Positions 4,738-44,905 are shown, counted from the first letter of the stretch. The stretch: 64,000 bases of DNA from an uncultured archaeon (GCA_964342815.1 CAYFHS010000001.1:147849-211848), one strand, 5' to 3'. The notes: generated by a model from the letters alone, not told the origin. Numbers and translations: made by a program.

Positions 4738-4791
4738 CGAAGCACTCCACAAAAAATGAAGGAATGTTGTCTGTAAAAAACAACGTGCTAA

Positions 4792-4812
4792 CACTATATA
4801 TATATTATCCGA
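4792..4812 (-). promoter_or_regulatory. Putative BRE-TATA promoter of paralog 1
   Basis: Minus strand GGATAATATATATATAGTG about 55 nt upstream of the start; similar motifs precede other paralogs. Confidence 0.5.
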
Positions 4813-4884
4813 ACTTGGTATCCAATACGGCTTAATCCCTACTAAAAAAAATTACCCGCCGAACATTTACACAAGGCCTTATTC

Positions 4885-7800
4885 TCATCCCTGGATCACT
4901 CCCTGCGTCTGGCATACCGGACAGGTGACCAGAGCCGGATATTCTATTATTTCAGCCGTGTAGTTATTGCCGCAAGAATGGCACTGCATCCGCAGGAATC
5001 CCCTTCGGTTATCGCCACCGTTTGGTGGCGGAAGAGAAGGGGAAGCAGTTTCCTGCGTTTCCGAGGATGAAACCAACAGATTCATCTGTTGGTGATTCAT
5101 AGTTATTTGATTCGTCGCCGGAGCCGGACTTTCCACGGGAACCGGCGGTACCACCGGAGGCGCGGACTCCGGTGATTGAGTAATTTTATCCAGATTTGAT
5201 AGATATGAATCGAGCTGTGAAAGATCGGTGGCCTCCGATGGGCTTGCTGGTGGCACAGTGGGCCCTGGCGGTGACGGACTCTGGGGAGTAATTGGTGCAG
5301 TTCCGGGTTCAACCGGGAGTATTTCTCCACTTGGCGTAATGGGATCAGGTGGGGCCGAAAAGGGAGTCTCCATCGCTTCCAAATTCGGCATTAAGGCTGT
5401 TTGAGCGGGCAAACCCTGAGAAGCTACCGGGAAGGAAGTGGAGGGATCGACACTAACCTGGGAGACAGAGGGCGGGGGTCCCGGCGGTAGTGCCATTCTT
5501 TCAAGGTTCTGCATGCCCTGATCGGTGGGGAATGAAGGAAGCGAATATGCTGCGTATGCAGGATCAGCCTGGCCATGGGGAACCAGCGGAGGTGTTTGAC
5601 CAGGCGGGATGGTGCCGAATTGCATCATCCCCGGTCCCGGGGGCAGCATCAGATATTGTCCTTCGGGTCCCTGCATCCCCCTGAAGGGTGCTTGTAATTG
5701 TGTCGGTTCCCCAAATCCCTGATGCCCGGCAGGAATACCCTGGCCTGGAGGATAAGGGGATTCCAAGTACTGCTGCTGCGTCATTGGTGCCTGAATCAGA
5801 GGTGTCGAGTCCAGTTCTGCTTTTTTTCTCTTTTTCCTGACTACAAAAAGGATGATCAAAACCAGCATGATCAGAAGTAAAATGGCCCCAAGAATGATAA
5901 ACAACAGATAAGAATCTCCACCCATAATTCCGCTGCTGTCCTGGATAATAATATCTGGCTCACCGTCCGGGGAATCCGCCCCGTTATTCGGATCGGTACC
6001 TTTTTCTCGCTCCAATCCGTCAGAAAAACCGTCACCGTCGCTATCACGTTCATAGTCTGCTTTTTCTACCACGGTAATCTTCACTTTGTCCGTCTCGTTG
6101 TAACCATGGCCGTCTGAAACGAATACCGTTATGGTGTGTTTTCCAGCGAGTAAATCGGTACTGAAATAAGCTCCGGACCCAATGAACTGGGTGTAACTAT
6201 TATTTGACGACCAGAAAAAGCTTAGATTGTCCCCGTCCTCGTCGCTGGAATCCGATGCATCGAAATCAATTAAACTGTCGTACCTGAAATACGAGCCTTG
6301 TTCGGGGGACGATATTATTATCTCTGGCTTGGAATTCACCCATATCCGGTACTGACTTGACTCATTGTAACCCGTACCCAGCATGTCATCGGCACGCCAC
6401 CGGATGTTATTATCGCCGCCCCATTCGAACTCCACTTCCATAAATATCTGTGTGGGATTACCAGCAACAACATTGACTGCTTTCTTCCAGGGCTTGAAAT
6501 TCTTATTGTCGCCCCCCCCGGTAGAAACGGAATACTCAATTGTTGAGACGTCAACCCCGCTTCCGTCATCGAATATCTGTATGAAACATTCCACATCCCT
6601 GCTATCTGCGTACATGTCCTCGGTGGGTGTGAAGGAGCCATAATAAACCTGCGTAGTGTCGATCTTGAGATTGAATTTATCTGAAAGCGTCATTGGATTA
6701 CCAACCATGTCAGTTCCACGGAACATGATATAGTTGTCCTTGCCCTCTGCGTATGGGAAAGTTACGGTTATTTCGTATTCATTCTCATCGGATTTGTTTA
6801 TATTTTCGGCTTTGATAGGTATCCATTGACCGAAATCATTCGGACCTGACGTGGATATCCGCGCCTGGATGCTCGCCGTGTCCACACCGCTCCCGAAGTC
6901 GCTGACCATGATCTTTGTTTCAATAACTTTTTGAGTGTACCATTCTAACTGCGGTCGTATCTCTCCAGCAAAACTGATCGGGGTGATATCTACCTTGATA
7001 TTAACCGGAGCCGATTCAGAAAAACCGTTTTCCGAAATGTCCTTAGCACGCCATTTGATATAGTTCTCCTCCCCCTCCGGAAATACGTATTTTATATTCG
7101 GGGTCAGTTTGTCTCCGTCTACAGGCACCCACGCAGGTATCCACATATTGAAGCCGTTCACCCCGTTCGCAGAGATCGAATATTCAATGGTGCTTCCGTC
7201 AACCCCGGACCCCTCTCCGTCGTCTATCTCAACCGAGCAGTCGATATCGCTGTGATTGTGCCAGGAGCCGTCCGGGGGCGCAATATTTGAAAATGTAGGT
7301 GGCGTAAGATCCACCAGAATACCTGAAGAAGCGGCTTCACCGATATTTCCCACATTGTCCACACACCATACATGGATGGTGGCATATCCTTCGGGCAGTT
7401 CGTTAACTTCCACCTCTGTAACATTTATGAAAGTCCCGTTATCGGTTCCTGAATTGTCGACGTGTGAATAATAATATCCAAGGAGGCCCGAGTCGGGATC
7501 TTCAACATCGAGCCAGGTGGCGAACATCAGCGGTTGATCCGTATTTTCCGTTTCCTTGTCCTTGAATCCGTCGGCATGGCATACGAGGTTCAATGGGGGA
7601 TGAGGAGGGTCGTTATCCACCTTCAGAGGATAAGTTAAATTCGTTTTGCACGCGCCTGATCCAGGAATGTTCTCGATGGTGATTGAATACCACTCCTGGG
7701 AATCGGTGACGTTCCTCGTTGTGATATTAAGCTGAATTTTATTCCCGCTGCTCTGGTTGCTCCACCACGCGTTTCTTTGCGAATCAGCCACCTTGACATC

Positions 7801-9168
7801 GAAATAGTCATTGTCGGGGTAGATATTCATCGAATCATAATAAACCACCGTTAAATTGGATATTCTTAAGTTCTCGCTCCCTCTTACCCAACCCCCCCGG
7901 TCCAGCTTTCCCTGGTACTGACCGGTGAAATCGGGGGTGCCGACGAAATCCAGGTCCTTCACCACCCTGAACAGATAGGGGAACCGATCCCGATGAAACT
8001 CACCCGTCACCGAGGAAGTGTTCACGAAACAATCAACTGGTTCCCTGTGTGGAAATGTGAAATTGAAACCTACCGTAAAATTGAGCCACCACCTCTTCAC
8101 ACCGTCATTGGTAACCGTGCAATCGTCGAGAAACAGCTGAACGTGACCTTTAACATCCTTGAGTTTGAAGAATTCTTGTCTTGTGAAGTTATAACCCAGC
8201 GTGGCATTTGTTTCGTTGTAATCCAGGTGAACCTTGACTTCAGAAACTTCGTTCAGGTCTTTGGGCGAGGTAACATTGACGGTAAGGCCGTAGGTCTCGT
8301 ACTTGGCATAACAAACGACGTCGTTTCCGCCTCCCCTGCCCTTGACCCTGGTGTTCTCTGCGAATGAAAGCCCACCGTATGGACACATTATTGAGCGGAA
8401 ATCTATGCGAACGGTATACTGTCGGATGAAATTCCTGTTCCTATCGTATACCTTCATTGGCATGCTGGACGAGCCGCCGGCCACCACGTAATAGCGGTCG
8501 CCATCGAAAGCGAAGTTCATACAGGTTGAGCTTATACCACCGTAATTCCAGGTGATGTCATTCGCCCCTATGTTGCCGCCCGTAAAGCGGTTGGTTGACC
8601 ATCCGTACCAGGTATTACCGGAAGCGATCCAAACGGCTCCGTCCGTTACCGAAAAATAATAACTGGAGACCGATCGGGTTATTGATGAACTGGAAACATG
8701 GTTCCCTGTCATGGTCACCTTGTGAATGGTGCTTCCGGACCCGTAATACAGGTAAATTCCATCGGTCCCCACTGCATACCCGGACCCACCATGAGCCAGG
8801 TTATAGGTCGTCTGCTGTCCGTTGGTGGTGGAATAACGGTACAAAGTACTTCCGGTACGAGCATAGACCCACTGGCCGTCGGGAGTCATGCAGGGCATCG
8901 TCTGCGAACCAGGGATGTTCATATTGACAATATTCTGGATATTGCTCCCGTCCTTGTTCAAACGCTTCAGCCAGCCGCTGTTGTAATTGCGCGCGTAGAG
9001 ATAATCGGGACTAAGGGCTGCGCGGGACCCCATATTGTTACTGTCAGGGGATTTTTCCACTTCGGGATTTTCGATTATATTAATTACATCCGCATACTGT
9101 TCCACGAGTATGGAAAATCCGGCAGCAACCATGAAAAGAACCAGTATAACCGTGATTGTTTTCTTCAT
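4885..9168 (-). CDS. Array paralog 2: surface protein with beta-propeller-like head
   Basis: Same stalk, TM and tail as paralog 1. Head is rich in short aromatic beta-strand repeats (TPDGQWVYAR, GTDGIYLYY, AFDGDRYYVV). Confidence 0.85.
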   Translation of the reverse strand: MKKTITVILVLFMVAAGFSILVEQYADVINIIENPEVEKSPDSNNMGSRAALSPDYLYARNYNSGWLKRLNKDGSNIQNIVNMNIPGSQTMPCMTPDGQWVYARTGSTLYRYSTTNGQQTTYNLAHGGSGYAVGTDGIYLYYGSGSTIHKVTMTGNHVSSSSITRSVSSYYFSVTDGAVWIASGNTWYGWSTNRFTGGNIGANDITWNYGGISSTCMNFAFDGDRYYVVAGGSSSMPMKVYDRNRNFIRQYTVRIDFRSIMCPYGGLSFAENTRVKGRGGGNDVVCYAKYETYGLTVNVTSPKDLNEVSEVKVHLDYNETNATLGYNFTRQEFFKLKDVKGHVQLFLDDCTVTNDGVKRWWLNFTVGFNFTFPHREPVDCFVNTSSVTGEFHRDRFPYLFRVVKDLDFVGTPDFTGQYQGKLDRGGWVRGSENLRISNLTVVYYDSMNIYPDNDYFDVKVADSQRNAWWSNQSSGNKIQLNITTRNVTDSQEWYSITIENIPGSGACKTNLTYPLKVDNDPPHPPLNLVCHADGFKDKETENTDQPLMFATWLDVEDPDSGLLGYYYSHVDNSGTDNGTFINVTEVEVNELPEGYATIHVWCVDNVGNIGEAASSGILVDLTPPTFSNIAPPDGSWHNHSDIDCSVEIDDGEGSGVDGSTIEYSISANGVNGFNMWIPAWVPVDGDKLTPNIKYVFPEGEENYIKWRAKDISENGFSESAPVNIKVDITPISFAGEIRPQLEWYTQKVIETKIMVSDFGSGVDTASIQARISTSGPNDFGQWIPIKAENINKSDENEYEITVTFPYAEGKDNYIMFRGTDMVGNPMTLSDKFNLKIDTTQVYYGSFTPTEDMYADSRDVECFIQIFDDGSGVDVSTIEYSVSTGGGDNKNFKPWKKAVNVVAGNPTQIFMEVEFEWGGDNNIRWRADDMLGTGYNESSQYRIWVNSKPEIIISSPEQGSYFRYDSLIDFDASDSSDEDGDNLSFFWSSNNSYTQFIGSGAYFSTDLLAGKHTITVFVSDGHGYNETDKVKITVVEKADYERDSDGDGFSDGLEREKGTDPNNGADSPDGEPDIIIQDSSGIMGGDSYLLFIILGAILLLIMLVLIILFVVRKKRKKAELDSTPLIQAPMTQQQYLESPYPPGQGIPAGHQGFGEPTQLQAPFRGMQGPEGQYLMLPPGPGMMQFGTIPPGQTPPLVPHGQADPAYAAYSLPSFPTDQGMQNLERMALPPGPPPSVSQVSVDPSTSFPVASQGLPAQTALMPNLEAMETPFSAPPDPITPSGEILPVEPGTAPITPQSPSPPGPTVPPASPSEATDLSQLDSYLSNLDKITQSPESAPPVVPPVPVESPAPATNQITMNHQQMNLLVSSSETQETASPSLPPPNGGDNRRGFLRMQCHSCGNNYTAEIIEYPALVTCPVCQTQGVIQG
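4990..5097. repeat. 108-nt in-frame palindromic insertion, copy in paralog 2
   Basis: Absent from paralogs 1, 3 and 4; flanked by ATG on both sides; perfect 10-bp stem ACCAACAGAT/ATCTGTTGGT at 5072-5093. Confidence 0.75.
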
Positions 9169-9477
9169 ACATTCACCGTGATCAGCTCAGTGGGCGGTAA
9201 TATTACCGATGACGGAATTGGATTTAACATTTGGAGATTACTCAGCGGGAAGCAAAAACATAGAGCCTTCCGGTATATATAATATTGGAATGAAATGGAT
9301 GACAAAAAAAAGTTTGTCTGAGGACCGGATGGGAGAATTTAGAAAAAGGTTAAGTAGCAAATTATAGGATTGGAGATAATCCGATTAGAAATTAACAAAA
9401 AATATTTATTATTTATTTAAGGCCCTTCAACCCAAATCAATATAACATATGATACCTATATGTTACTCTGTGATATA

Positions 9478-9777
9478 ATGTCTACGCAAGTTAACATCAG
9501 ATTGGACGACAATTTATTAAGTGAAATAGACGCGATTACAAAGGTTCTTCATGTTTCCCGAACTGAATGGTTAAGGATGAAAATTGCTTTTGCAGTAAAA
9601 GATGATACTTTAAGATTTTCTGAAGCAATTGCAATGGAATATGCAAAAGGACACCTTAGTGATATGGAATTAAGAGAAATGCTGGGTTCCGATGCCGATG
9701 AGGTAATATACATCGTAAAACATATGAAAAGAGGCAAGAATTATATCGAAGATATGGTGGACAAGGGACTTTTATGA
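9478..9777 (+). CDS. Ribbon-helix-helix (CopG-like) putative antitoxin
   Basis: N-terminal QVNIRLDDNLLSEIDAI...SRTEWLR RHH pattern; overlaps the start of the downstream PIN gene by 4 nt (ATGA). Confidence 0.75.
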   Translation: MSTQVNIRLDDNLLSEIDAITKVLHVSRTEWLRMKIAFAVKDDTLRFSEAIAMEYAKGHLSDMELREMLGSDADEVIYIVKHMKRGKNYIEDMVDKGLL

Positions 9778-10241
9778 AACCGTCGCTTGCTTTCGATACT
9801 TCGGCCCTTGTTTCTCTGGGCCATACGGAATTGATAGAATTGATCTTGGATAACTATAATGTCATCATTTCCGATAGGATATTAAAAGAATTGGCTGAGA
9901 TCGGAGGAAAGAACGACAAAGATGCTAAAGCGGCCAATAAATGGTTGGAATACTCCGACAAGATGGAATTGAAAGATGCAAAGAAAAGCATAATTGGTGA
10001 GGAAGAACTATTGGAAATAGCTCAACGCGAAAAATTATCAATGGTGACCGATGACGTAAAAGCAACTAAAAAATTCGAGGATCAAATAGATTGGATATTT
10101 AGTGTCCATGTAGTTTTCCTTCTCTATTATAAAGGTATAATTACAAAAGAAAGAGCAATTTTTTCCATAGAAAAGATGATAAGTGAGAGATCTTGGAAGA
10201 ATAATATTATCTCCTTGACGGCAAAGTTACTTTTTCAATAA
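9774..10241 (+). CDS. PIN-domain (VapC-like) putative toxin
   Basis: FDTSAL N-terminal motif, IGEEE, and VTDD acidic PIN active-site pattern; 155 aa. Confidence 0.8.
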   Translation: MKPSLAFDTSALVSLGHTELIELILDNYNVIISDRILKELAEIGGKNDKDAKAANKWLEYSDKMELKDAKKSIIGEEELLEIAQREKLSMVTDDVKATKKFEDQIDWIFSVHVVFLLYYKGIITKERAIFSIEKMISERSWKNNIISLTAKLLFQ

Positions 10242-10375
10242 ACTATCGTGATATCTGAAGTAAGTTTTTGAAAAATTCATTTTATTTATTACTCACAATG
10301 GGTGCAGCACAGAATAACGCACTTATTCGGTACTCGCCTCAATGATATAATGGACAAATCCACCGAGAATCACTT

Positions 10376-13300
10376 CTAAGCCGAGTTGATAACACCCTGC
10401 GTTTGACATACCGGGCAGGTGACCAGAGCCGGGTACTCTATTATCTCCGCCGTGTAGTTATTGCCGCATGAGTGACACTGCATTGTCATTTCATTCGTCG
10501 ATGGTGCTGGTGTTTCTACCGGAATCGGGGGAGCGGTTGGTGGTGTAACTGGTGGTGTGACTGGTGGTGTGACTGGTGGTGTAACTGGCGGTGTATCTGG
10601 TGGTGTGACTGGTGGTGTAACTGGCGGTGTATCTGGTGGTGTGGTTGGTGGTGTGGCTGGCGGTGTATCTGGTGGTGTAGTTGGTGGTATGGCAGGTGGT
10701 GTGGCTGAGGGTGTGGTTGGCGGTGCCGGTTCGGGGGTTTTTGTCATATCCTCGAGATATGCTAGATACGAATCCAGTTCGGACAAATCTCCGGTCCCTG
10801 CCGGGGGTGCGGCGGGTTCACCAGGGGCAATATCCTGGCCCGGGATGGGCGGCGGAGAAGGTTGTGCCGGTGACGGCGGGAAAGAAATGTCCGCCGCGGG
10901 CATGTTCATCGGGTCTGCAAGGGGTGTCGGAAGCGGAACATCGAGACCTGAGAATACTACTGGCGCCGGACCTGGCTCGGGAGCTGGCGGAAGTGCCAAT
11001 CTAGTAAGTTCCTGCATTCCCTGGTCGGTTTGGAACGAGGGAAGCAAATAAGTGCTTTCTCCGGTAAAGCCTGTATTCAAAGCAGGTGGACCCTGAAATG
11101 TCTGACCTGGGCTGGCAGTGGGGAACTGGCTTTGGTTCACAAAACCCGGACCGGGAGCCAGCATCAGGTGTTGAGGTTGTGAACCCGGCATTCCTGTCAT
11201 AGGAGCCTGCATTCCTCCGCCATACATTTGCGGACCCGGCGGGGTAAACTGCCCTGAATGCGGTCTCTGCCCGTATGGGAGCTGCTTAGGCCCCGCTTTC
11301 ACAGGGGCGTCCACCTTCTCCTCTTTGGATTTCTTTTTTTTCCGGACGATAAAAAAGATGATCAGGATCAATAATATAAGAATAAAAATGCAGCCAAGGA
11401 TGATCAACAGCATCGATGAACTTTCACCCAGTATTCCCGCGGTTTCAGGGGGTACGATATCGGGCTCGCCCTCCGGAGTAGTATCACTGTTGTACGGATC
11501 GGTTCCGGATTCCCTCTCGAAACCGTCTGAAAAACCGTCCCCGTCGCTGTCCGTCTCGTAATGCAGCCTGCTTCCCACCTCGATATTTACATCCGTGCTC
11601 TCGTTGTAGCCGTGCCCGTCATAAACGAACAACGTGATGATGTGTTTTCCGGGGGCCAATCGCCCGCCAAAAAGTGGAAGTGAACCAAGAGATTTGTTCG
11701 CAGTGACGTTGCTGGACCAGTAAAAGCTCAGATTGTCCCCGTCATCATCATATGAGTCCAGTGCGTCGAACATTATTTCCCTGTCGTATCTGAAATACGA
11801 AGCTTGATCGGGAGAAGAAATAATTGCTTCAGGTCTTGAATTTACCCATACCCTGTATGATTTCGATATGTTATGGCCGGTCCCCATCATATCATCGGCT
11901 CGCCACCTGATGTAATTGTCAGGCCCCCATTGAAACTCCACATCCAGAAGAACCTGGGTCGGATTTCCCGTAACAACATTCACCACCTTCTTCCACGGCC
12001 CAAAACTCTTATTGTCGCCCCCCGCCCCACTGGCTATGGAATACTCCACGGTTTCCGGGTTGACACCGGAGCTGTCGTCCATGATCTCGATAAAACATTC
12101 AACCGTCTGACTGTTGGAATAATCGTTCTCATCCGGAGTGAAAATACCGAAATATACCGGGGATATGTCAATTTTCAGATTGAATTTGTCCGAAAGGGTG
12201 TAGGGATTGCCCACGAGGTCAGTTCCCCGGAACATGATGAAATTATCCGCACCCTCCTCATAGGTGAACGTTACGGTTATCTCATAACCGTCCACATCCG
12301 AGCCGCTGATGCTTTCAGGTACTATAGGTATCCAATGGCCGAAATCATTGGGACCCGACGAGGATATCCTCGCTTCGAAACTTTCTTGATTCACCCCGCT
12401 TCCTAAGTCGCTCACGGTTATTTTTGTAGTTATCGATTTTTGGCTATACCATTCCGTTTCCGGAGAAATCACGTTTGCGAATTTGATAGGAGTTGTGTCG
12501 ATCTTAATATTTACAGGTGAGGATTCGACGAAACCGTTTCCCGAAATATCTTTGGCACGCCATTTTATAAAATTTTCCTCGCCTTCCAAAAAGACATAAT
12601 TGACGCCTGGGCTCATGGGCTCATTTTGCACGGGCAGCCAGGCTGGTATCCAGAAATCAAACCCGTGAACTCCATTGTTGGAGATAGAATACTCCACTGT
12701 CGCGCCATCGACCCCGGATCCCTCTCCGTCATAAATGTCCACCGAGCAGTCGATATCAGTATGATTGTGCCAAATCCCGTCCGCGGGAGCGTAATTCGAA
12801 TAATACGGGACGGTCAGGTCCACCAGTATCTCTGAAACTTCGCTGTCACCGATATTTCCCACATTGTCGACACACCAGACGTATACCGGCACGACACCCT
12901 CGGGAAGTTCATCTATCTCCACTTCTGTTTTATTTGTAAAAGATCCGTTCTCCGAGGTCGAATTGTCGTCATGGGAATAATAATATCCCCTAAGACCCGA
13001 AGCAGGGTCTTCCACGGGGTCCCAGGTGACGAAGACCTCGTTCTTGTCGGTATTTCCGGTCTCCTTGTCTTTGAAATCGTCGGCATGGCACAGGAGGTTC
13101 ACAGGTGACAGCGGTGCGTCGGCATCGATCTTGAGAGGATAATCAAGATTCGCCGCGCAAATTCCATTTTCAGGTATGTTCTCGATACTTATTGTATATT
13201 CTTCGTCCGGGTTCGTGACATTTCCCGATACTGCTTCTATTGAAACCTTCCCGCCGCTGGATTCATAGTCCCACCATTCGTTACCTTTTCGGTCGCTAAT

Positions 13301-14776: not shown

Positions 14777-14931
14777 TCAATTCAACCTCTTTTCAGGCCA
14801 ATTGGCGAACTTTGTCGCCCGCTATGATGTCGCTAGAAGGGGTAATTTGATGACAAATCCATGGTCTTATGAATAGATAATGTTTTCGTTTGAAAAAGAT
14901 AATACTCGCACATATCTAAATCGATTCCCGA

Positions 14932-17900: not shown

Positions 17901-18987
17901 TCACCCATATTCGATCTACCCCGTCATCCGCCAGTGTACAGTTATCTATGAGAAGATTGACGTCGTTCTTTTCGTCCTGTAACTTGAAGAATTCGTTTCT
18001 GCTCCAGTTATAACCCAGGGTGGCATTTGTCGTATTGTAATCAAGATAGACCTTCAGTTCGGAAACGTGATTCAGGTTTTCATTAGTAGTGAGATTGACG
18101 CTGAAGGTGTAGGGTTTATATCTGGTATAGCAGACATTTTCCTCACCCTTCGGAACCACGAGTGCGGCGGAGTCCGTATAGACCAGCAGATCCACTGCGG
18201 AGTAGCGGTACCAGGTGTTTCTGCTGAACTCGCATGCCTGCAGCTCCCTTCCGGTCCACGCAAGACCGTAATTCCCGCTGTTGTAGGGTGGATCGATGGT
18301 GCGCAGGTGCTGGCCGTTCATATCATACACCAGCAGCTCGTGATCGCTGTCCGATACGATGAGCATATTGTTGAAATAGAGCATACCAAAAGCGTTTGAG
18401 AAACGGAGACTGGGGTTGATGGTTCCGAGCTTGGCGCCGGTATTCTTGTCCAGCTTCAGTATTGGGCCGTAATTGAAAAGGCCATACACGTATTTATCAT
18501 CGCAGGTGATCCCTCTCGCCTGGCTTCCGTCGTTATACGTCCTGGCCCAGAGCTGGTTCCCGTTCCTATCGAACTTGTAGAAGGTTCTGCTGTTATCCCC
18601 TACATAGAGATTGCCATCGGAATCGGTTCCGAGAGCGATGGATCTTGACACGGTATTTCTCGTACCCACCAGCCTACCGGCATCGTTGTAACGGTGGATG
18701 GTGCTGCTTGACCACGACTGCTTGACCCAATACTCTTTGAAGTATCTCATATAGACCGAGCCGTATTGAGTGGTTCCATCCAGGTTTCTCGTACCCAGAT
18801 ATTGAAAATCCTCGGCCCTTGTCTCGTTCCCATAATTATTCCCGGATCCTCCATCGATTTCATCCGGTTCAGCCTCTTGAATATTATTTATACTGGCTTT
18901 CCCGATATTGAAAGAAAAGATCAGGCTGAACAGTGATATGGTGATCAGCAATACCGGCAAAATATCACTTAAGCGGGTACGTTTCAT
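14932..18987 (-). CDS. Array paralog 4: surface protein with NHL/PQQ-like beta-propeller head and shorter tail
   Basis: Likely start MKRTRLS at 18987. Head repeats ALGTDSDGNLYVGD, FDRNGNQLW, GITCDDKYVY, VYDMNGQHLRTI, GLAWTGREL; conserved stalk. Confidence 0.85.
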   Translation of the reverse strand: MKRTRLSDILPVLLITISLFSLIFSFNIGKASINNIQEAEPDEIDGGSGNNYGNETRAEDFQYLGTRNLDGTTQYGSVYMRYFKEYWVKQSWSSSTIHRYNDAGRLVGTRNTVSRSIALGTDSDGNLYVGDNSRTFYKFDRNGNQLWARTYNDGSQARGITCDDKYVYGLFNYGPILKLDKNTGAKLGTINPSLRFSNAFGMLYFNNMLIVSDSDHELLVYDMNGQHLRTIDPPYNSGNYGLAWTGRELQACEFSRNTWYRYSAVDLLVYTDSAALVVPKGEENVCYTRYKPYTFSVNLTTNENLNHVSELKVYLDYNTTNATLGYNWSRNEFFKLQDEKNDVNLLIDNCTLADDGVDRIWVNFSVIFNFSFPHERPIDCLTKTSSVANEHTMDRFPWLFRVENDFEFAGTPFFSGEEQGKIDPGDWVKGGQNITVSNLSVVYAGSPMLYPDDEFFNVRITDRFGNTWWDNSSSVEGISLPIRTRYATDPDEEYLITIEDIPGSGICMTNLSFPVKLDAEPPLFPVNLKCRAGGFKDKETGNTKQPEMYVTWDAVEDPASGLLGYYYSQSDNSGTTDGTFTNVTEVKIDELEEGYAEIYVWCVDNVGNIGDAASSGILVDLSPPVFSNHTPLDGSWHNHTDIDCSIEIFDGPGSGVDGSTIEYSISASGTHGFNFWMPAWVPEEGNPIIPSVKYIFPEGEENYIKWRAKDISENGFSESPPVNIKVDITPVSFNDEITPQIEWYAQNTISTTITVSDTGSGVDLESLEARISTAGPNDFGKWISIDAENIHEPVEGQYEITVTFSYAEGKDNYIMFRGTDMVGTPYTLSDKFNLKIDSSPVYFGTFKPDEEEYADDRTVECFIQILDDGSGVNPSTVQYSIGYGGTDNESFDPWKNAVNVVTGNPTQVLMKLEFEWGDDNYIKWRADDLTGTGFNESMPYRVWVNSIPKVVISSPDDGSYFRFDGEITFDATHSSDEDGDNLTHYWTSNVSANRQIGSGAYFSFQLEPGKHTITLFVSDGHGYNESEKIRIEVGGPAVYGKDSDGDGFSDGLEREKGSDPYNRAVFPGGKPDIVDQDRGGILGEDSSLLFVIVGCILLLIIVILVILFIIRKRKKKDSEQISPSGMPIPMQSQYGPPQHPYPQGQYHPTGLPQGYGEMAQYQGAAWGMQGAGAPGAVFPPGAGITNTNQYGPPVPGQAPQAQIPQNDYSPQLPPYSPAGPGPSGSTAYSLPLFSTEEGAQNLELMALPPGPDPAGGQAIMNPAAAPSIHNPDLSLQPEAVQAIGALDTLPTPPEPFQPASLQAHEGIPAPVTNEITMQCHSCGNNYNAEISQYPALVTCPVCKTQGIIESQ

Positions 18988-19056
18988 ATTACACACTCAT
19001 TTTTAGGGTATATTCATTAATATCTAAATGTAAAAACGCAAAAGCAATAATATTTA

Positions 19057-19078
19057 CACTATTTATTATTAGTTATCT
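19057..19078 (-). promoter_or_regulatory. Putative BRE-TATA promoter of paralog 4
   Basis: Minus strand AGATAACTAATAATAAATAGTG about 70 nt upstream of the ATG. Confidence 0.45.
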
Positions 19079-19086
19079 TAAATAAA

Positions 19087-22000
19087 TTACATAGATTCGA
19101 TCATTCCCTGAGTCTGACAGACCGGGCAGGTGACCAGAGCTGGAAGCTGCACTATCTCGGCTGTATAATTGTTACTGCAAGAGTGACACTGTATCTGCTG
19201 GAATCCACTTCGATTACCGCCACTGTTTGGTGGCGGAAGAGAAGGGGAAGCAGATTCCTGCGTTTCCGAAGATGAAGCCAACAGACCCGTCTGTTGGCGA
19301 TTCATGGTTATCTCATTTGCAGCCTGGGCCGGAGTTTCCATCGGAACGGGAGGCTCCCGGATATCGGATTCCTCTTTTAAACTACCTATTGTGGCGAGAT
19401 AAGCGTCAAGTTCCCCGAGATCACCTGTATTGGCATTCGTAGGATCAATAATGGATGATGGACCTGTGGCTGCTGGGGCCGGAGGTGAAATTAGCTGTTG
19501 GCCGAAAGGAAACTGCTGTTCATCTACACTGGGCGATATGGTTTCAGGTTGTATCGGATTGATATTTGTTTGCGCTTCAGCGTGTATGGGTCCGGGAGGT
19601 AATGCCATCCTGTTGAGATTCTGCGAGCCTTGCTCGGTGGAGAACTGTGGAAGTGAGTAAGTGGTGCTGCCTGCGGCACCCGTACCAAGCTGACCGTATG
19701 GGATCTGCGGTTGTAATTGTAATGTGGGAGTTTGTCCGGGGGCAGCCGTCCCGAATTGCTGGGAGGCCCCCATCCCCGATCCCGAATTCATCATCATGGT
19801 AGGGGTATTCAGTCCTTGCATAGCCATGACCGCCGCTTGGTATTGCGCCATTTCTCCATAGCCCTGCTGCCCGGCTTCAGACATGTATTGACCCTGACCA
19901 TAGGGATGCTGGGATGGGCCGTATTGTGATTGTAGCGGGGGAGACTGGACGCTGGGTTCTTCGTCTTTTTTTCTTTTTCTCACTACAAAGAATATAACCA
20001 AAATCAGGATGATCAACAGTAATAATCCCCCAAGAACTACAAAAAGCAGTGAAGAACCTTCACTCAATATTCCCAATTTCTCCTGGACGACAATATCCGG
20101 CTCACCTTCCGGGGAAACCGCCCCGTTATGCGGGTCGGTACCTTTTTCGCGCTCCAACCCGTCCGAGAATCCGTCCCCGTCGCTGTCCCGCTCATAAGCT
20201 GCTTTAGAACCCACTTCGATTTTAACCTTCGCGCTCTCATTGTAACCATTCCCGTCTGACACGAATACAGTTATTGTATGTTTTCCAGGGGCCAGCACGG
20301 CATATTTAACACTGCCGACCCCCAGGAGCTGGTTGGCGCTGACATTGGATGTCCAGTAATAGGTGAGATTGTCTCCATCCTCGTCGGATGAATCGGAAGC
20401 ATCGAATGTAATTTCGCCGTCATAGCGGTAATACGACCCAGCTTCGGGAGATGAAATTTCTGCATCCGGCTTCGAATTCACCCATACCCTGTAAGGCAGT
20501 GACACATTGTACCCCGTTCCCATGACATCGTTGGCACGCCAACGTATGAAATTATCGGACCCCCATTCGAACTCCAACTCCATTAGAACCTGCGTGGGAT
20601 TCCCCTCTACAACGTTAACTGCCTTCTTCCACGGCCCAAAACTTTCATTGCCGCCGCCCCCTTTGGCGACAGAATATTCGACGGTTTGGGGATCTACCCC
20701 CGATCCGTCGTCCAGTATCTGTATGAAGCATTCCACGGACTTTCTGTCCGCAAAATCATTCTCGTCCGGTGTGAAATCGCCGAAATACACCGGGGAAGTA
20801 TCGATTTTCAGATTGAATTTGTCTGACGAGGTAAAGGGATTTCCCACCATGTCCGTGCCTCTGAACATGATGTAATTATCCTTCCCTTCCGGGTAAGTGA
20901 AAGTGACGGCTATTTCATAACCGTCGTCACCGAATTTAGTTATATTTTCCCGGTCAATTTGCATCCATGTGCTGAAATCATTTGGGCCCGACGTGGATAT
21001 CCTTGTTTCGAAGCTTTGCGGATCCAAGCCGCTTCCGGTATCGCTAACCGTTATCTTTGTTGTTATTGAATGGTGATCATACCAATCCTTCGGGGGTGAT
21101 ATCGCATCGGCAAAAATGACGGGAATCGTGTCGATCTTTATGTTTATGGAAGGCGATTCCGCAAAGCCGTTCCCCGAAACGTCCTTTACCCTCCATTTTA
21201 TGTAATTTTCTTCACTCTCCTCAAAGATGTATTTTACGCTGGCCACCGTCGGTTCGTTCTCTAGAGGCACCCATGCAGGTAGCCAGAAATCAAAACCGTG
21301 TACTCCATCATTGGACACGGAGTATTCTATTGTAGTGACGTCGACTCCCGAACCAGTGCCGTCATATATTTCCACCATGCATTCTATGTCCGTGTGATTG
21401 CGCCATGAACCGTCCAGGGGAGTATGGTTCGAAAAGACCGGCAGCGTAAGGTCCACCAGTATGCCCGAATTTCCTGCCTCTCCAATGTTTCCCACATTAT
21501 CGATGCTCCAAACGTAAATTTCCGCAAATCCTTCACCCAGCTCATCGATCTTTACTTCTGTTTCATTGGTGAAAGTCCCATTTGTGGTTCCCGAATTGTC
21601 CAAATGAGAATAATAATAACCCAATAGACCCGAAGCCGGGTCCTCCACTTCGTCCCAAGTGACGTACATCTCGGCCTGGTTGGTATTCTCCGTCTCTTTG
21701 TCCTTGAAACCCCCGGCCCGACACTTCAGATTAACGGGAAACAGGGGTGCTTCTGCATCGATCTTTACCGGGAAGCTTAGATTTGTCATGCAAATACCGG
21801 AACCGGGGATGTTCTCGATGGTTATGAGATATTCCTCAGCCGGGTCGGTGACCTTTTGCGTATTAATGGAAATTGAAATCCCTTCCACGCTGGATGAATT
21901 GTCCCACCACGTTTTTCCGGTCCTGTCCATGATCCTGACATTGAAGAATTCATCATCCGGGTACCGCATTGGAGACCCTGCATATATCACTGTAATATTG

Positions 22001-23418
22001 CTGACGGTGATTGCCTGATTTCCCTTTACCCATGATCCGGATTCGATTTTACCCTGTTCGTCCCCGAAAAAGAATGGTGTGCCTTTAAACTCGAAATCGT
22101 TCTCGACACGACAAATATGAGGGAATCTCTTCATCCGTGATTTGCCGTTGCTGGCTCTTATCTTGACAAAACAGTCAATCTTCTTCTCATGTGGAAAAGT
22201 AAAATTAAATCTGATGGAGAAATTTACAAACCATTTATCATCACCGTTATTTGAAAAAGCACTGTCTTTGACCAGAAGCTGCACATAGCCGTTTTCGTCC
22301 CCCAATTTGAAGAATTTCCTTTGCGTCCAGTTGAATCCCAGGGTGGCATTTGTTGTATTATAATCGAGCCATACCTCCATTTCAGAGGCATCGTCAAGGG
22401 TTTTGGTGGTGGTGATATTCACGCTGAGATTATATGAGCTGTACTCTGCATAACATACTTTTCCGTCGTCTATATCACCTTTCAATGCCGCAGATTCCAC
22501 GTTCGTGATCCTTACCCCCCCAATTTCGGGATAATGATAAACGTTTCCCTGATTCCAGACGAGAAGACTGTTGTCCTCTGCATTGTAAGAGGTATGGGCG
22601 ATGTATCCTCCGGCACCGAGACTGTTTGAGTACGAGCTACGGGAGGAAGTGCTGGTATCGTATTTGTAATTGAAGGTTGCGCTGTTGTATGAATTTCCCC
22701 AGTACAATACACCGCCGACCATGAATGCCCAGCCCACGTTTCCCTTGTTCCTGCCAGTATTCCAGGTTTTTAAAACGTTCAGATTTTCATCCAGTTGGCT
22801 CAATTGCATGGGTTGTGAGGTCGATGTCGCCCAGCAGACGTAGAGACCGGTCTCGTCACTCATAAGATTGATATCAGTGTAGCCGCCCCAATTGAAATGG
22901 GCCCGGTTGTGAAATCCCGCGTTTGGCAGTGCCCTCGATAGTACTTGAGCCATGTCCGTTGTCCTGCATTTTACCAGTGTGTTGCTGTTGTACTGCGCAT
23001 AGTAGAGATGGTTGTTGTAAATTGTGTGATAGGTTCCTTCGGATTGCCGTGGGAGATTAAATTGTCGAACACCGTTATTATTGATGAAGTTGGCCAGCGA
23101 AGTGTATCGATATACCGTTGACTCCCGATAGCTGTTATGATAGAACACATGTCCGTTCGATTCGTCCACATCTATAAAACCATAAGTGCTGAAACCACCC
23201 CTGATCTGCCCGAAATTATTTGATAATTGTCTCATCTCTTCATCGCTGCGTGTTTTTTTCACGCTGTTTTCCGCGGTCATTTCTCTTCTGACATTTATGG
23301 AAGTTTTCAGGGAGGGCTCCTCAATTGCGTCTGTAAGGTAGCTTTGGAAAGCCGTACTTATCATCACAACAAATATTGGGATGATTATTATCTTAGTCAA
23401 TTTCCGATTCTTTTTCAT
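19087..23418 (-). CDS. Array paralog 5: surface protein with olfactomedin-like head
   Basis: Head contains LPNAGFHNRAHFNWGGYTDINLMSDETGLYV...LNVLKTWNT...AFMVGGVLY...YKYDT...SYNAEDNSLLVWNQG, collinear with the OLF consensus; conserved stalk and tail. Confidence 0.88.
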   Translation of the reverse strand: MKKNRKLTKIIIIPIFVVMISTAFQSYLTDAIEEPSLKTSINVRREMTAENSVKKTRSDEEMRQLSNNFGQIRGGFSTYGFIDVDESNGHVFYHNSYRESTVYRYTSLANFINNNGVRQFNLPRQSEGTYHTIYNNHLYYAQYNSNTLVKCRTTDMAQVLSRALPNAGFHNRAHFNWGGYTDINLMSDETGLYVCWATSTSQPMQLSQLDENLNVLKTWNTGRNKGNVGWAFMVGGVLYWGNSYNSATFNYKYDTSTSSRSSYSNSLGAGGYIAHTSYNAEDNSLLVWNQGNVYHYPEIGGVRITNVESAALKGDIDDGKVCYAEYSSYNLSVNITTTKTLDDASEMEVWLDYNTTNATLGFNWTQRKFFKLGDENGYVQLLVKDSAFSNNGDDKWFVNFSIRFNFTFPHEKKIDCFVKIRASNGKSRMKRFPHICRVENDFEFKGTPFFFGDEQGKIESGSWVKGNQAITVSNITVIYAGSPMRYPDDEFFNVRIMDRTGKTWWDNSSSVEGISISINTQKVTDPAEEYLITIENIPGSGICMTNLSFPVKIDAEAPLFPVNLKCRAGGFKDKETENTNQAEMYVTWDEVEDPASGLLGYYYSHLDNSGTTNGTFTNETEVKIDELGEGFAEIYVWSIDNVGNIGEAGNSGILVDLTLPVFSNHTPLDGSWRNHTDIECMVEIYDGTGSGVDVTTIEYSVSNDGVHGFDFWLPAWVPLENEPTVASVKYIFEESEENYIKWRVKDVSGNGFAESPSINIKIDTIPVIFADAISPPKDWYDHHSITTKITVSDTGSGLDPQSFETRISTSGPNDFSTWMQIDRENITKFGDDGYEIAVTFTYPEGKDNYIMFRGTDMVGNPFTSSDKFNLKIDTSPVYFGDFTPDENDFADRKSVECFIQILDDGSGVDPQTVEYSVAKGGGGNESFGPWKKAVNVVEGNPTQVLMELEFEWGSDNFIRWRANDVMGTGYNVSLPYRVWVNSKPDAEISSPEAGSYYRYDGEITFDASDSSDEDGDNLTYYWTSNVSANQLLGVGSVKYAVLAPGKHTITVFVSDGNGYNESAKVKIEVGSKAAYERDSDGDGFSDGLEREKGTDPHNGAVSPEGEPDIVVQEKLGILSEGSSLLFVVLGGLLLLIILILVIFFVVRKRKKDEEPSVQSPPLQSQYGPSQHPYGQGQYMSEAGQQGYGEMAQYQAAVMAMQGLNTPTMMMNSGSGMGASQQFGTAAPGQTPTLQLQPQIPYGQLGTGAAGSTTYSLPQFSTEQGSQNLNRMALPPGPIHAEAQTNINPIQPETISPSVDEQQFPFGQQLISPPAPAATGPSSIIDPTNANTGDLGELDAYLATIGSLKEESDIREPPVPMETPAQAANEITMNRQQTGLLASSSETQESASPSLPPPNSGGNRSGFQQIQCHSCSNNYTAEIVQLPALVTCPVCQTQGMIESM
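19195..19302. repeat. 108-nt in-frame palindromic insertion, copy in paralog 5
   Basis: Stems GCCAACAGAC/GTCTGTTGGC (19277-19298) and CCGCCAC/GTGGCGG; identical to the paralog 6 copy. Confidence 0.75.
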
Positions 23419-23485
23419 ATTTTAACTCCTCGGTTCCGGAAGAGAAATACTTGTCGAGATGATGGGGTGAAAACAATGAAATTCC

Positions 23486-23504
23486 ACTATTAATAGTTAT
23501 CCGG
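23486..23504 (-). promoter_or_regulatory. Putative BRE-TATA promoter of paralog 5
   Basis: Minus strand GGATAACTATTAATAGTG about 68 nt upstream of the ATG. Confidence 0.5.
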
Positions 23505-23510
23505 AATATC

Positions 23511-26500
23511 TCATATGGATTCGATCATTCCCTGGGTTTGGCAGACCGGGCAGGTTACCAGAGCTGGAAGCTGCACTATCTCGGCTGTATAATTGTTTCC
23601 GCAAGAGTGACACTGCATCTGCTGGAATCCACTTCGATTACCGCCACTGTTTGGTGGCGGAAGAGAAGGGGAAGCAGATTCCTGCGTTTCCGAAGATGAA
23701 GCCAACAGACCCGTCTGTTGGCGATTCATGGTTATCTCGCTTGCTGCTTGGGCCGGTGTCTCCATGGGAACGGGAGGTTTGGGGGGCTCTGAGCCCGGTG
23801 ATTCAGTCATACCGCCCAATGCGGCCAAGTATGCATCCAGTTCTGCCAGGTCGCCGATATTATCTGAGGAGGGCCCGGTTGTCTCCATAGCAGGAGATGC
23901 TGCTGTTTCAGCCACCGTATCTGGCGGCGGAGACGGTAACGGTTCAGCTGGAAATGTCGAATCCACTCTCGTTGAAGATATTGGATCTGGCGGCGTTGGT
24001 AAAGGCGTTCCCGGCGATCCTGCATCCGGCAGGATGGGGGGTTGCAGAGGCATGTCAGGAACAGAAGGTGGATAAGCAATCCCCAAATCCGCTGCAACGG
24101 GTGCTGGAGGTGAGGCGGGGCCTGGAGGAAGCGCCATTCTTTGGAGATCCTGCAGTCCCTGATCGGTTTGGAAGGAAGGAAGTAAATAGCCAGGATCCGC
24201 TGGGATACCCGGGCCAATCCCCGGAGGACCCTGCTGGGATGGAAATGCTTGAAATGCGGGACCACCAGGAACAACGTGGGGCCCGGGAGGCAGCATCAAT
24301 TGCGGCGATTGTATCCCCTGCATTCCAAATCCCGCTCGATGGCCAGGGTCGGGACCTGAATATCCCTGCGAGACAGGAGTCTGGTACTGTCCCTGCTGGT
24401 AAGGGTGAGGACTAGGTCCTGGGTACGTCTGCTGCGTGGGACCCGGAGCGGAGGGGGCGGGTACCTTCTTTTCGGATTTTTTCTTTTTCCTTAAAATGAT
24501 GAAAATGATCAGTATCACTAACACGAGAAGGAAGATACAGGCTAGGATTATGAAAAGTAACGAAGATCCACCGCTCAGTATCCCGCCGGGTTCCGTGATC
24601 ACTATGTCGGGTTCGCCTTCCGGGATTACGGCGCCGTTGTGTGGATCGGTTCCGGACTCCCGTTCCAGACCATCCGAGAAACCATCCTCGTCGCTATCCT
24701 TTTCGTATTCGACCCGGCTGATCACCTCGATTTTTACTTTCTCACTCTCGTTGTATCCGTGGCCATCAGAAACGAATAAACTGATTGTATGTTTTCCCGG
24801 GGCTAATCGAACAATGAACTTGGCATCACGTCCGACAGAGCGGTTCAAACTGACATTGCTAGACCAGTAAAAGCTGAGGTTGTCCCCATCCTCGTCGGAG
24901 GACCCCGAAGCATCAAAGGCAATTTCGTCATCGTAACTGAAATATGACCCTTGAGCTGGTGATGTAATAATCGCTTCAGGTTTTGAATTCACCCATACCC
25001 GATAAGGGATCGATATGTTGTGTCCGGTCCCCATCATATCGTCGGCCCGCCAGCGGATGAAATTGGCGGCCCCCCAGTCGAATTCCAGCTCCATAAGAAC
25101 CTGTGTGGGATTGCCTTCTACCACATTTACTCCCTTGTTCCAGGGCCCAAAATTTTCATTGTCACCCCCGTTCGCAATTGAATATTCCACTGAAGAAGGG
25201 TTCACCCCAGAGCCGTCATCGAATATCTGAATGAAACATTCCACCATCTTGTCGTCCGCATAATCGTTCTCTAAAGGCGTGAAAATCCCGAAATATACTG
25301 GCGAGGTGTCGATTTTCAGATTGAATTTATCAGATAATGTTATGGGGTTGCCAACCAGGTCCGTTCCCCTGAACATGATGAAGTTATCCTTTCCCTCCGC
25401 ATACCTGAATGTGACTGTAAGTTCGTGGCTGCCGCCATCGTTTTCACTGATGTTTTCGGCGTCTATTGACATCCACCGGCCGAAATCATTAGGGCCGGAA
25501 ACAGAAATTCTTGTTTCGATGCTGTCCGGCTTCACTCCACTTCCGATATCGCTAACCAATATCGTTGTTGAAATTTCTGCATAATCATACCATTCCATCT
25601 GAGGCGATATCTCCGCTGCGAAATTGATGGGAGTTGTATCAACCTTCAGGTTAACAGATGACGATTCGACAAATCCATTTCCTGTTATATCCTTTGAACG
25701 CCATTTTATATAATTATCTTCGCCCTCATGAAATATATATTTTGTACTTGGCACCATGGGTTCATTATTCTCGGGTATCCACGCAGGTATCCAGTAATCG
25801 AAACCATGCACTCCGTTATCCGACACTGCATACTCGATGGAGCTGCCGTCGACTCCCGATCCCGCCCCATCAAAGATCTCGATGGAGCAATCTATGTCCG
25901 TCTGATTGTGCCATGAACCATCCATGGGGGTATGGTTCGAAAAAACTGGCGGTGAAAGGTCCACAAGTATGCCGGAGCTTGCGGATTCGCCGATATTCCC
26001 GACCATGTCAATGCACCATACGTAGATCGAGGCAAATCCTTCGTGAAGGTTCTTCAATTCCACCTCGGTGACATTCAGAAAGGTACCGTTGATACTTCCC
26101 GAATTATCTGCTTGTGAATAATAATATCCCTTGAGTCCGGATGCGGGATCCTCTACGGCATCCCAGGTTACGAACATACCGGGCTGATTCGTATGCTCGG
26201 TCTCCTTATCCTTGAAATCATCGGCATGACACTTTAGGTTGACGGGATAGAGAGGAGGGTCCGCATCAATTCGTACGGGGAAGGTCAGATTTGTCATGCA
26301 AATGCCGGTTCCGGGTATATTCTCGATGGTGATATAATATTCTTCTTCCAGGTCGCTAACGTTTCTCGAAGTCAGATTTATTTCGACGCTCTCGTTACTG
26401 CTTTCATTGTCCCACCAAGCTTGCCCCGTTTTATCGGTAATCTTGACATCGAAATAGTCGTCCTTGGGGTAGATATCAACGGCTCCCGCATATCGTACCA

Positions 26501-44617: not shown

Positions 44618-44905
44618 AACATTCCTCCATACCACTTAACAATTGTTAAGTCAACGAAAATCTCTTTTTCTATAAATCTTTTCTTAGGCTAATAATTATA
44701 ATATCGACAATACATTTCTTAGGTAAAAAAATAGTTTTTATCACGGTACGGACAAACAATACCAGGTGAAAAATGAAACAAGCTTATATTCTAAAAGTGA
44801 GAGCGGAGTGGACAGGAACTACCACGAATTATGGAGCCTAGTGCCCTATAACCCGGGAAATCCTAAACGAATCCAAATATCGTATAGACTTATGAATGGT
44901 TTTTT

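Follow-up and report, generated by a model that had tools for sequence, protein, structure and literature searches.

The window, a stretch of 64,000 nucleotides from an uncultured archaeon (genome G000), carries tandem paralogs, numbered 1 to 6 here, all on the minus strand; the insert coordinates given below are counted along the plus strand. In the protein encoded by paralog 2, a membrane-spanning segment is accompanied by a cytoplasmic tail rich in Pro and by a zinc ribbon at the C-terminus. As an earlier note on this DNA had described, paralogs 1, 3, and 4 read (I/M)TMQCHSC, while paralogs 2, 5, and 6 carry an additional in-frame block. This block amounts to 111 nt (37 codons), that is, the 108 nt first reported plus a repeated ATG (ATA in paralog 5); it lies directly ahead of MQCHSC, and its position is identical to the codon in the three genes. 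The features are as follows.

493..4794, minus strand: paralog 1, empty site, NEITMQCHSC
4885..9168, minus strand: paralog 2 host gene, 1427 aa, surface protein with a TSP3_bac repeat
4990..5100, minus strand: element copy in paralog 2, 111 nt, 37 codons (MNHQQMNLLVSSSETQETASPSLPPPNGGDNRRGFLR), in the element's +1 frame
10376..14776, minus strand: paralog 3, empty site, NEMTMQCHSC
14932..18996, minus strand: paralog 4, empty site, NEITMQCHSC
19087..23418, minus strand: paralog 5 host gene, 1443 aa
19195..19305, minus strand: element copy in paralog 5, with ATA next, not ATG
23511..27824, minus strand: paralog 6 host gene, 1437 aa
23619..23729, minus strand: element copy in paralog 6, the same as the paralog 5 copy at 111/111 positions

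The boundaries of the block are sharp, as contigs bearing other copies part from the paralog 2 copy precisely at 4988/4989 and 5100. Independent metagenome contigs span the paralog 6 copy with zero differences. Orthologs of the filled genes are insert-free, namely that of paralog 2 from a different sample (P0009) and, in the sister species G001, those of paralog 5 (G001_a, an ortholog by its N-terminal and central domains) and paralog 6 (G001_e). The ortholog of paralog 3 (G001_d) is empty, like paralog 3 itself.

At the protein level, S, P, G, Q, N, T, E, D, or R make up 28 of the 37 insert residues, a composition suggestive of a disordered 37-residue segment in the cytoplasmic linker that precedes the zinc ribbon. 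Given the intact reading frames, the insert is presumably translated as a floppy S/P/G/Q-rich segment. The pN/pS ratio between paralog copies is about 1.8 and thus gives no sign of peptide constraint, so that the peptide looks tolerated rather than domesticated as a linker, the role that had been proposed for it.

Fold, covariation, and strand preference

Folded as RNA, the element reaches a minimum free energy of -54 kcal/mol as compared with -28 +/- 3.6 in shuffles (z -7.3; 0/200 as good), and the strength of the fold is similar for both strands and with DNA parameters. Two hairpins make up this structure, given here for the paralog 2 copy, in which all 37 predicted pairs are Watson-Crick.

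5067..5100, minus strand: first hairpin, element nt 1-34, ATGAA..ACCAACAGA(TGAA)TCTGTTGGT TTCAT
4991..5057, minus strand: second hairpin, element nt 44-110, stacked stems CGCAGGAA / CCCCTTCT / CGCCACC

Around a 2-nt centre, the first hairpin forms a palindrome of 22 nt; in the predicted fold, it has 9 bp and a 4-nt loop and is extended to 14 bp by ATGAA/TTCAT across a 2-nt bulge. In paralog 2, its arms read ACCAACAGAT/ATCTGTTGGT; paralogs 5 and 6 have GCCAACAGAC/GTCTGTTGGC instead, so that the perfect palindrome and the two pairing-preserving double substitutions noticed earlier are seen as described. The second hairpin spans 67 nt in the minimum-energy fold, where the stems CGCCAC(C)/(G)GTGGCG, also part of the earlier description, and CCCCTTC/GAAGGGG are both found. 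It is closed by CGCAGGAA paired with the distal TTCCTGCG; the GGAA-GCAG/CTGC-TTCC hairpin formerly proposed is missing from this fold. The paralog 5 copy has a perfect first hairpin, two of whose pairs are compensated, and a second hairpin that contains 4 sense-strand non-pairs.

The suspicion of compensatory base pairs is borne out across the family. Indeed, two-sided changes occur at 10/37 pairs, a number that 0/500 shuffles reach, and slid controls give 0-3. They affect 6/14 pairs of the first hairpin and both inner stems of the second, whose outer stem shows mismatches only, which turn into G-U pairs when read on the opposite strand. Furthermore, the gene-resident copies keep a perfect first hairpin, even though the paralog lineage has undergone three symmetric double changes in it. 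In a simulation with 13 random substitutions per 111 nt, at least two compensated pairs together with a fully paired first hairpin arose in 620 of 2,000,000 trials. A scan of the region against Rfam at a permissive E-value returned no family and only a chance lncRNA match (E 4.5).

The two strands do not preserve this pairing equally well. Standard pairs account for 98.0% on the antisense strand, with 16 G-U cells, versus 94.6% and 1 G-U cell on the sense strand, and folding energy is better on the antisense strand in 11/15 copies; in every copy that lies in frame within a gene, both folding energy and wobble pairs point to the strand antisense to the mRNA as the favoured one. Since pairing is better kept on that strand, a role in single-stranded DNA is favoured over an mRNA structure. 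That the complement of the +1 frame is the DNA strand that best keeps the hairpins suggests a single-stranded DNA intermediate or substrate.

Distribution, mobility, and ends of the repeat

The genome G000 holds about 10 full or near-full copies in addition to fragments, and the sister species about 9 (8 full, of which 4 are identical, and 1 cut by a contig end) as well as split forms. Zero copies were found in 39 other relatives, and exact-pattern scans of GTDB representatives and JGI metagenomes gave matches only in the sister species or its population. On the basis of these sequence searches, the repeat is confined to a single genus of uncultured marine Thermoplasmatota. As the earlier note had anticipated, further copies lie in unrelated genes and between genes. 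One separates, in frame, the DUF4147 domain of a glycerate-kinase-like protein from its MOFRL domain, and another, also in frame, lies immediately before the Fic core of a Fic protein; others are intergenic, and one case is reversed at a gene end. Predicted proteins owe C-terminal ends, N-terminal extensions, and internal loops to the element, whose frame is open in every gene-resident copy. Because it is 37 codons long and stop-free in 3/6 frames, a gene stays intact when a copy lands in one of its tolerant parts. A G001 copy with nested inserts keeps the frame as well; the 54-nt module nested in it has a single weak match in G000.

Comparison of filled and empty orthologous sites in the two assemblies demonstrates mobility. 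In G000, the glycerate kinase gene contains the element; the ortholog in G001, 78% identical to it, has an empty site and aligns with a clean gap of 111 nt, and the sites corresponding to 4 G001 copies are empty in G000. One copy is orthologous between both genomes, with 105/109 identical positions (96%) against about 83% in flanking coding DNA. In the three intergenic filled/empty pairs, divergence is too high to place the junctions. Four independent marine metagenomes contain contigs with the filled alleles of paralogs 2 and 6 and without a 111-nt skip; at their low depth, these contigs neither support nor oppose rare empty alleles. The occurrence of the other copies in independent samples makes it unlikely that they are assembly chimeras. 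Together with the covariation and the short-form outgroup described below, the further copies and the filled and empty sites uphold the idea of a mobile unit of the MITE/REP type or resembling a Rickettsia palindromic element.

The ends of the element, ATGAATCACC... and ...GGATTCCTGCGG, are devoid of terminal inverted repeats, so that it is not a classic MITE; in the copies listed, the one feature common to both ends is an offset GAATC(A)CCC, located 2 nt in at one end and 6 nt in at the other. The 5' ATG is invariant and paired within the first hairpin, and the 3' flank (n=16 copies) is ATG in 11, ATA in 3, and other in 2, with ATG(T/G/C)A in most. For this reason, the 3-bp ATG target duplication formerly proposed cannot be demonstrated; the net gain is 111 nt, and filled/empty pairs fit a duplication of ATG or of AT, or none. 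The 5' flanks are not conserved, and no conserved tetra- or pentanucleotide target was found 5' of the element.

The Y1 transposase family (PF01797) has no match in G000, an 89%-complete genome. Two full Y1 genes (PF01797) are present in G001, with element sequence absent within several kb of them. The TnpB zinc-ribbon family (PF07282) is absent from both genomes, and the lone DDE_Tnp_1 match sits on a 1.6-kb contig. In G000, at its 89% completeness, paired element ends nowhere lie more than 111 nt apart, as those of a parent insertion sequence would, and neither hairpin foot bears a GTAG or CGTC tag in the consensus.

History among the paralogs and rival explanations

The 111-nt block very probably represents one copy of a mobile repeat that is small, non-autonomous, and able to form hairpins, tolerated in frame and spread among paralog tails. 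The paralog copies form one clade (SH-aLRT 96). In their first hairpin, they read CAAC/GTTG, while nearly all others read CCAC/GTGG; the only other copy with the A is the decayed C29 copy, in which it is unpaired, and no non-paralog copy in either genome has the paired CAAC/GTTG state. Moreover, the presence of the element contradicts orthology in 3/5 ortholog pairs. Between paralogs 2 and 5, pS is 0.07 in the element and 0.77 in the adjacent zinc ribbon. An element far younger than the tails that flank it points to one old insertion, later copied between paralog tails, and a conversion tract is visible between paralogs 5 and 6.

19010..19342, minus strand: approximate conversion tract in paralog 5, with its paralog 6 counterpart at about 23434-23766

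This tract of about 220 nt runs from ~37 nt upstream to ~74 nt downstream of the element. Identity is 100% within the element, 81% upstream of it (-37..0), and 95% downstream (+111..+185), and it falls under 80% farther away. We propose that a single copy would have entered one paralog tail before the split of the two known species and would then have moved to the other, already diverged, tails by short-tract gene conversion or recombination, the most recent transfer being between paralogs 5 and 6. Copying between the tails probably proceeded by gene conversion. The hairpins would belong to the element's own biology, with a single-stranded DNA intermediate as in REP/RAYT or IS200/IS605-type systems.

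At least three separate insertions at the same site, guided by a sequence preference of the integration machinery and without gene conversion, are unlikely given the single clade, the non-orthologous hosts, and the paralog 5/6 conversion tract. Such insertions would agree with the element being much younger than the tails; the ATG(T/G/C)A of most 3' flanks suggests some target preference, and the flanks of paralogs 2 and 5 are only as alike (69-73%) as those of any paralog pair. However, with a paralog-only clade and the paired CAAC/GTTG found nowhere else, every donor would have been another paralog copy. Furthermore, the paralog 5/6 tract reaches past the element on either side, and a TCT Ser codon just 3' of the element occurs only in the three filled G000 tails. 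As regards the sharing of the element between paralog 2 and paralogs 5 and 6, the data do not fully distinguish gene conversion from repeated site-specific insertion.

It is quite improbable that the hairpins are selected by the host, either as an mRNA element near the 3' end (stability, ribosome pausing, termination) or as a protein-binding DNA palindrome. Host selection would account for the compensatory changes and is in line with the strong fold, with a first hairpin that stays perfect despite its three symmetric double changes, and with the conservation of the orthologous copy relative to its flanks. Yet the preference for the antisense strand in all in-frame gene copies speaks against an mRNA structure, and the paralog 5 and 6 copies show a decayed second hairpin (4 sense-strand non-pairs). 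The element also occurs between genes, in unrelated genes, and reversed at a gene end, has no Rfam family match, and is absent from 5/8 paralogs of the same cluster.

The identical boundaries in every filled gene could be read as an ancestral long form from which paralogs 1, 3, and 4 precisely deleted a 37-codon linker, but this is extremely improbable. The segment is a dispersed repeat, also intergenic and in unrelated genes, its divergence is far below that of the flanks, and the short form, rather than the long one, is the outgroup state, found in homologues from the family's other genera (G003), in 9/13 cluster paralogs, and in the paralog 2 ortholog from another sample. An archaeal mRNA intron cut by the tRNA-splicing endonuclease, which the earlier note had kept as a remoter option, or a block bypassed in translation is hardly credible despite the strong structure, the length in multiples of three, and the archaeal host, as a scan of the three paralog copies and 60-nt flanks for a bulge-helix-bulge (3-nt bulge, 4-bp helix, 3-nt bulge) found none at or near the borders that is common to the three, and each gene-resident copy, including the G001 copy with its frame-keeping nested inserts, has an open frame that splicing would render needless.

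Beyond a mobile repeat tolerated in frame, the conservation of the orthologous copy above the neutral level (96% versus about 83% in the flanks), together with the perfect first hairpin of the gene-resident copies, hints at more than selfish DNA. There is a modest chance that active maintenance of the hairpins takes place on one DNA strand, whether through selection or because one arm of the palindrome corrects the other, and that hairpin breaks drive a homing-like copying between diverged paralog tails. The symmetric double changes of the first hairpin, the 111/111 identity of the paralog 5 and 6 copies, and an orthologous copy evolving about four times slower than neighbouring coding DNA fit this possibility.

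Relation to known elements

The in-frame survival of selfish palindromic DNA within genes is a textbook oddity of Rickettsia. The Rickettsia palindromic elements RPE-1 to RPE-10 (Ogata et al. 2000, as summarised in PMC10969869) are, like the present element, short (about 100-150 bp), palindromic, dispersed, and lineage-restricted repeats, often in frame within unrelated genes, to which they add a peptide without destroying the gene (PMC10969869). No mobilising enzyme is known for either. In contrast to RPEs, the present element has an archaeal host, two discrete hairpins, and nestable modules, was probably copied among tandem paralogs after insertion, and keeps its pairing preferentially on one strand. 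Likened to RPEs by its arrangement and residing in an archaeon, it is best regarded as an analogue and not a member of that group.

Hairpin repeats of the REP/BIME/REPIN type, mobilised by RAYT (Y1 HUH) transposases, likewise have neither terminal inverted repeats nor clear target duplications and are modular or nested. Their fold, too, is specific to one strand, in keeping with a substrate of single-stranded DNA, but they measure 20-40 nt and carry a GTAG or CGTC tag (PMC3733652), while the present element is 111 nt long and untagged. Unlike them, it is intragenic, in genomes where no Y1 gene was found (G000) or the Y1 genes are unlinked to it (G001). MITEs with in-frame fusions (intragenic ERIC, large BOX) are also small, multicopy, and non-autonomous, have open frames, and are occasionally fused in frame to host genes (PMC10969869). 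The archaeal element differs from these in that it lacks terminal inverted repeats, no parent insertion sequence sharing its ends was found, and a target duplication cannot be demonstrated. The IS200/IS605-derived palindrome-associated elements of haloarchaea have subterminal hairpins, act on one strand, and have no inverted repeats or target duplications. The subterminal hairpins, their strand-specific fold, the lack of inverted repeats, and the archaeal host are shared with these, but neither TnpA nor TnpB was found in G000, and there is no conserved 5' target oligonucleotide.

The literature searched contained no account of this family or of archaeal in-frame palindromic elements. The same outcome as in Rickettsia thus arises in a genus of marine Thermoplasmatota, and an insert of this kind, once landed, can pass among tandem paralogs. 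Such inserts inflate and muddle gene calls and alignments in this archaeal group. The asymmetry of the wobble pairs reveals which strand preserves the hairpins and thereby narrows the search for the mobilising enzyme. If the hairpins are indeed actively maintained, the family would represent an undescribed archaeal single-stranded-DNA repeat system.

Insert position and predicted fold

Six large genes in the window lie on the - strand as part of a tandem set; each codes for a protein of about 1350-1470 aa in which an extracellular N-terminal part is followed by a membrane-spanning segment, a Pro-rich tail, and, at the C terminus, a zinc ribbon (MQCHSCGNNY...CPVCQTQG). Alignment of their 3' ends bears out the in-frame block described in the earlier note for paralogs 2, 5, and 6, with none in paralogs 1, 3, and 4; the insert is 111 nt long, made up of the 108 nt first described and the repeated ATG, and it sits directly 5' of the Met of MQCHSC, which is replaced by Ile in paralog 5. 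Its predicted translation would give a peptide such as NHQQMNLLVSSSETQETASPSLPPPNGGDNR. The inserts are as follows.

4990-5100 (+ strand coordinates), gene on - strand: insert in paralog 2
19195-19305 (+ strand coordinates), gene on - strand: insert in paralog 5
23619-23729 (+ strand coordinates), gene on - strand: insert in paralog 6

In the predicted fold, element nt 1-34 form a first hairpin of 14 bp including a 22-nt palindrome, and nt 44-110 a second hairpin of three stacked stems; the stems listed in the earlier note are found in the sequence. Folded as RNA, the element has a minimum free energy of -54 kcal/mol, with shuffles at -28 (z -7.3), and the complementary strand and DNA parameters give folds of equal strength. 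An mRNA intron is unlikely, as no bulge-helix-bulge splice motif is present at the insert borders.

Two other repeat-bearing tails were observed in the window. The tail of paralog 3 (10400-10760, - strand) holds a long run of TPP(V/D/A)TPP repeats just upstream of the zinc ribbon, which is another route to lengthening the same linker. A protein of 2041 aa (38510-44635, - strand), whose NxxN repeats resemble a right-handed beta-helix, has near-identical acidic repeats (EEIVDEVWAEDEENQMQ) in its C-terminal tail.

Dispersed copies and mobility

BLAST and an nhmmer profile search against the genome holding the window (G000; 4.35 Mb, 116 contigs, 89% complete) identified 10 near-full copies of the element, along with fragments comprising only the first or only the second hairpin. 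These dispersed copies, together with filled and empty orthologous sites, support the proposal of a mobile element. One copy lies in frame between the two domains of a DUF4147/MOFRL glycerate-kinase-like protein and another, also in frame, immediately before the core of a Fic protein, while the remaining copies are intergenic or encode the final residues of open frames, one of them in reverse orientation. Most copies are stop-free in frames +1, +3, and -3, and frame +1 is the one used by all five internal gene copies.

G000:C47, element 4116-4227: reverse-oriented copy, in an open frame (4093-6387, 764 aa) on the opposite strand

This 764-aa frame ends within the reversed element, whose -3 frame supplies its last 44 or so residues. 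Two chimeric variants (G000:C1:238563-238674 and G000:C3:28999-29104) carry another long hairpin (..GCATCCTCGAAAACCCGAGACGGGTTTTCTACGGAT..) instead of the first, joined to a normal second hairpin, which suggests a family built from exchangeable hairpin modules.

Among 41 genomes (its own and 40 relatives), the element was found only in G000 and in a sister species of the same genus (G001), the latter with 8 full copies, another truncated where its contig stops, and split forms. Among 185,579 species representatives scanned for the exact pattern, the sole match was Thermoplasmatota archaeon isolate ETNP2_MAG_1, taken as G001, and matches in a metagenome exact-pattern scan were confined to sites of the G001 population. 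Runs in which the window occurs come from marine or seawater metagenomes, and independent marine metagenome contigs read without change across the filled sites of paralogs 2 and 6.

The G001 ortholog of the glycerate kinase gene, 78% identical, is without exactly the 111 nt, and four G001 copies occupy sites that are empty in G000. Recent activity is indicated by four full G001 copies that do not differ from one another. Only one orthologous copy is common to both species (G000:C2:227032-227141, corresponding to 1501-1610 of G001 locus extract L032), and in G000 it supplies the C terminus of a 343-aa open frame. This shared copy, the filled and empty sites, and the identical G001 copies together indicate that the family was active before and after the two species split. 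Another G001 copy (L034:1501-1612, contig C78) stands right before the ATG of a 290-aa gene, whose product it would lengthen by 37 N-terminal residues, bringing an ATG of its own; the corresponding G000 site (C8:54749-55113) is empty.

The net gain is 111 nt in all cases. At the 5' end an invariant ATG pairs with a CAT within the first hairpin, and the 3' flank reads ATG in 11 of 16 copies (ATA in 3), so that duplication of a 3-bp ATG target is only a possible reading. A search of G000 (89% complete) for Y1 and TnpB genes gave none; the Y1 genes of G001 stand apart from any element sequence, and no long element carrying both element ends was found.

History in the paralog cluster

With the same genes on either side, the surface-protein cluster comprises 8 paralogs in G000, of which two (A and B) lie upstream of the window; G001 has 5 (a-e).

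G000:C1:139518-175672: G000 cluster (window 1-27824 plus about 8 kb upstream)
G001:C103:20215-42492: G001 cluster (locus extracts L083/L084)

In trees built from the N-terminal and central parts, A pairs with b, B with c, paralog 3 with d, paralog 5 with a, and paralog 6 with e, the order being shuffled between the two clusters. The N-terminal domains are only about 10-25% identical among paralogs and the central 800 residues 55-80%; a cassette-like exchange of variable heads and tails is suggested.

In G001 only paralog c is filled, at the same codon, by an element of 228 nt (L062, G001:C103 about 29250-29480) that contains two nested, frame-keeping modules rich in hairpins (54 nt and about 63 nt). 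Its ortholog B is empty, as are the orthologs of paralogs 5 and 6 and P0009, a paralog 2 ortholog from a different sample; the short form is also seen in homologues from another genus of the family. From these outgroup homologues and empty orthologs, the short form, not the long one, is ancestral, and presence of the element is at odds with gene orthology.

The four copies that reside in paralogs group in one clade (SH-aLRT support 96) and share a paired CAAC/GTTG, whose A is otherwise seen only, unpaired, in a decayed copy on contig C29. The paralog 2 and paralog 5 elements differ from each other at 13 of 111 positions (pS 0.07, pN 0.13), versus pS 0.77 and pN 0.11 in the adjacent zinc ribbon; the element is thus far younger than the host tails and its encoded peptide unconstrained, so that domestication as a peptide linker, put forward in the earlier note, is not supported. 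Paralogs 5 and 6 are identical over the element (111/111), 81% identical over the upstream 37 nt, and 95% over the downstream 74 nt, then below 80%, which marks a conversion tract of short extent.

Read most simply, a single insertion would have predated speciation and then been passed from tail to tail, either by gene conversion or by unequal recombination. Between paralog 2 and paralogs 5 and 6, repeated site-specific insertion with a paralog copy as donor is also a possibility. Three independent insertions are not supported, given the single clade of resident copies and the tract shared by paralogs 5 and 6.

Structure, strand, and relation to known elements

The structure of the element is conserved. 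In 12 distinct copies drawn from the two genomes, 10 of the 37 pairs have changed on both sides, a count matched in none of 500 shuffles, and slid-partner controls give 0-3 pairs; an earlier nine-copy test had given 7 pairs. Three symmetric double changes mark the first hairpin of the paralog lineage.

Pair 11/26: C-G to A-T
Pair 8/29: A-T to G-C
Two central positions: T/A to C/G

When 13 random substitutions were simulated, about 3 of 10,000 trials left the first hairpin intact with two or more compensated pairs. The second hairpin is more decayed in paralogs 5 and 6, with four sense-strand non-pairs. The orthologous copy is 105/109 identical between species, with flanking coding DNA at about 83%, and the first hairpin is perfect in gene-resident copies; together these hint that the palindrome is constrained or corrects itself.

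On the +1-frame strand, mismatches in the stems are mostly A-C, which on the complement are G-U pairs, as seen in the pair counts below; these, like the fold counts after them, come from related copies and so overstate independent events.

Sense (+1 frame) strand: 94.6% standard pairs, 1 G-U cell
Antisense strand: 98.0% standard pairs, 16 G-U cells

The second hairpin records at least about 12 A-C versus 2 G-T events, and of 15 copies, 11 fold more stably as the antisense strand, with a gain of 8-13 kcal/mol in those that have diverged most. The mismatch pattern and the better antisense fold argue that structure is maintained on the strand complementary to the host-gene mRNA, hence as single-stranded DNA or antisense RNA and not as an mRNA structure.

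No family in Rfam matches the element. It has no terminal inverted repeats, as a MITE would, and is without the GTAG/CGTC tags that define REP sequences (PMC3733652). It resembles REP/RAYT and IS200/IS605-type elements in its strand-specific fold and in showing neither inverted repeats nor a clear duplication; the enzyme is missing. With respect to the Rickettsia palindromic elements, it is a functional archaeal counterpart rather than a member of the family (PMC10969869).
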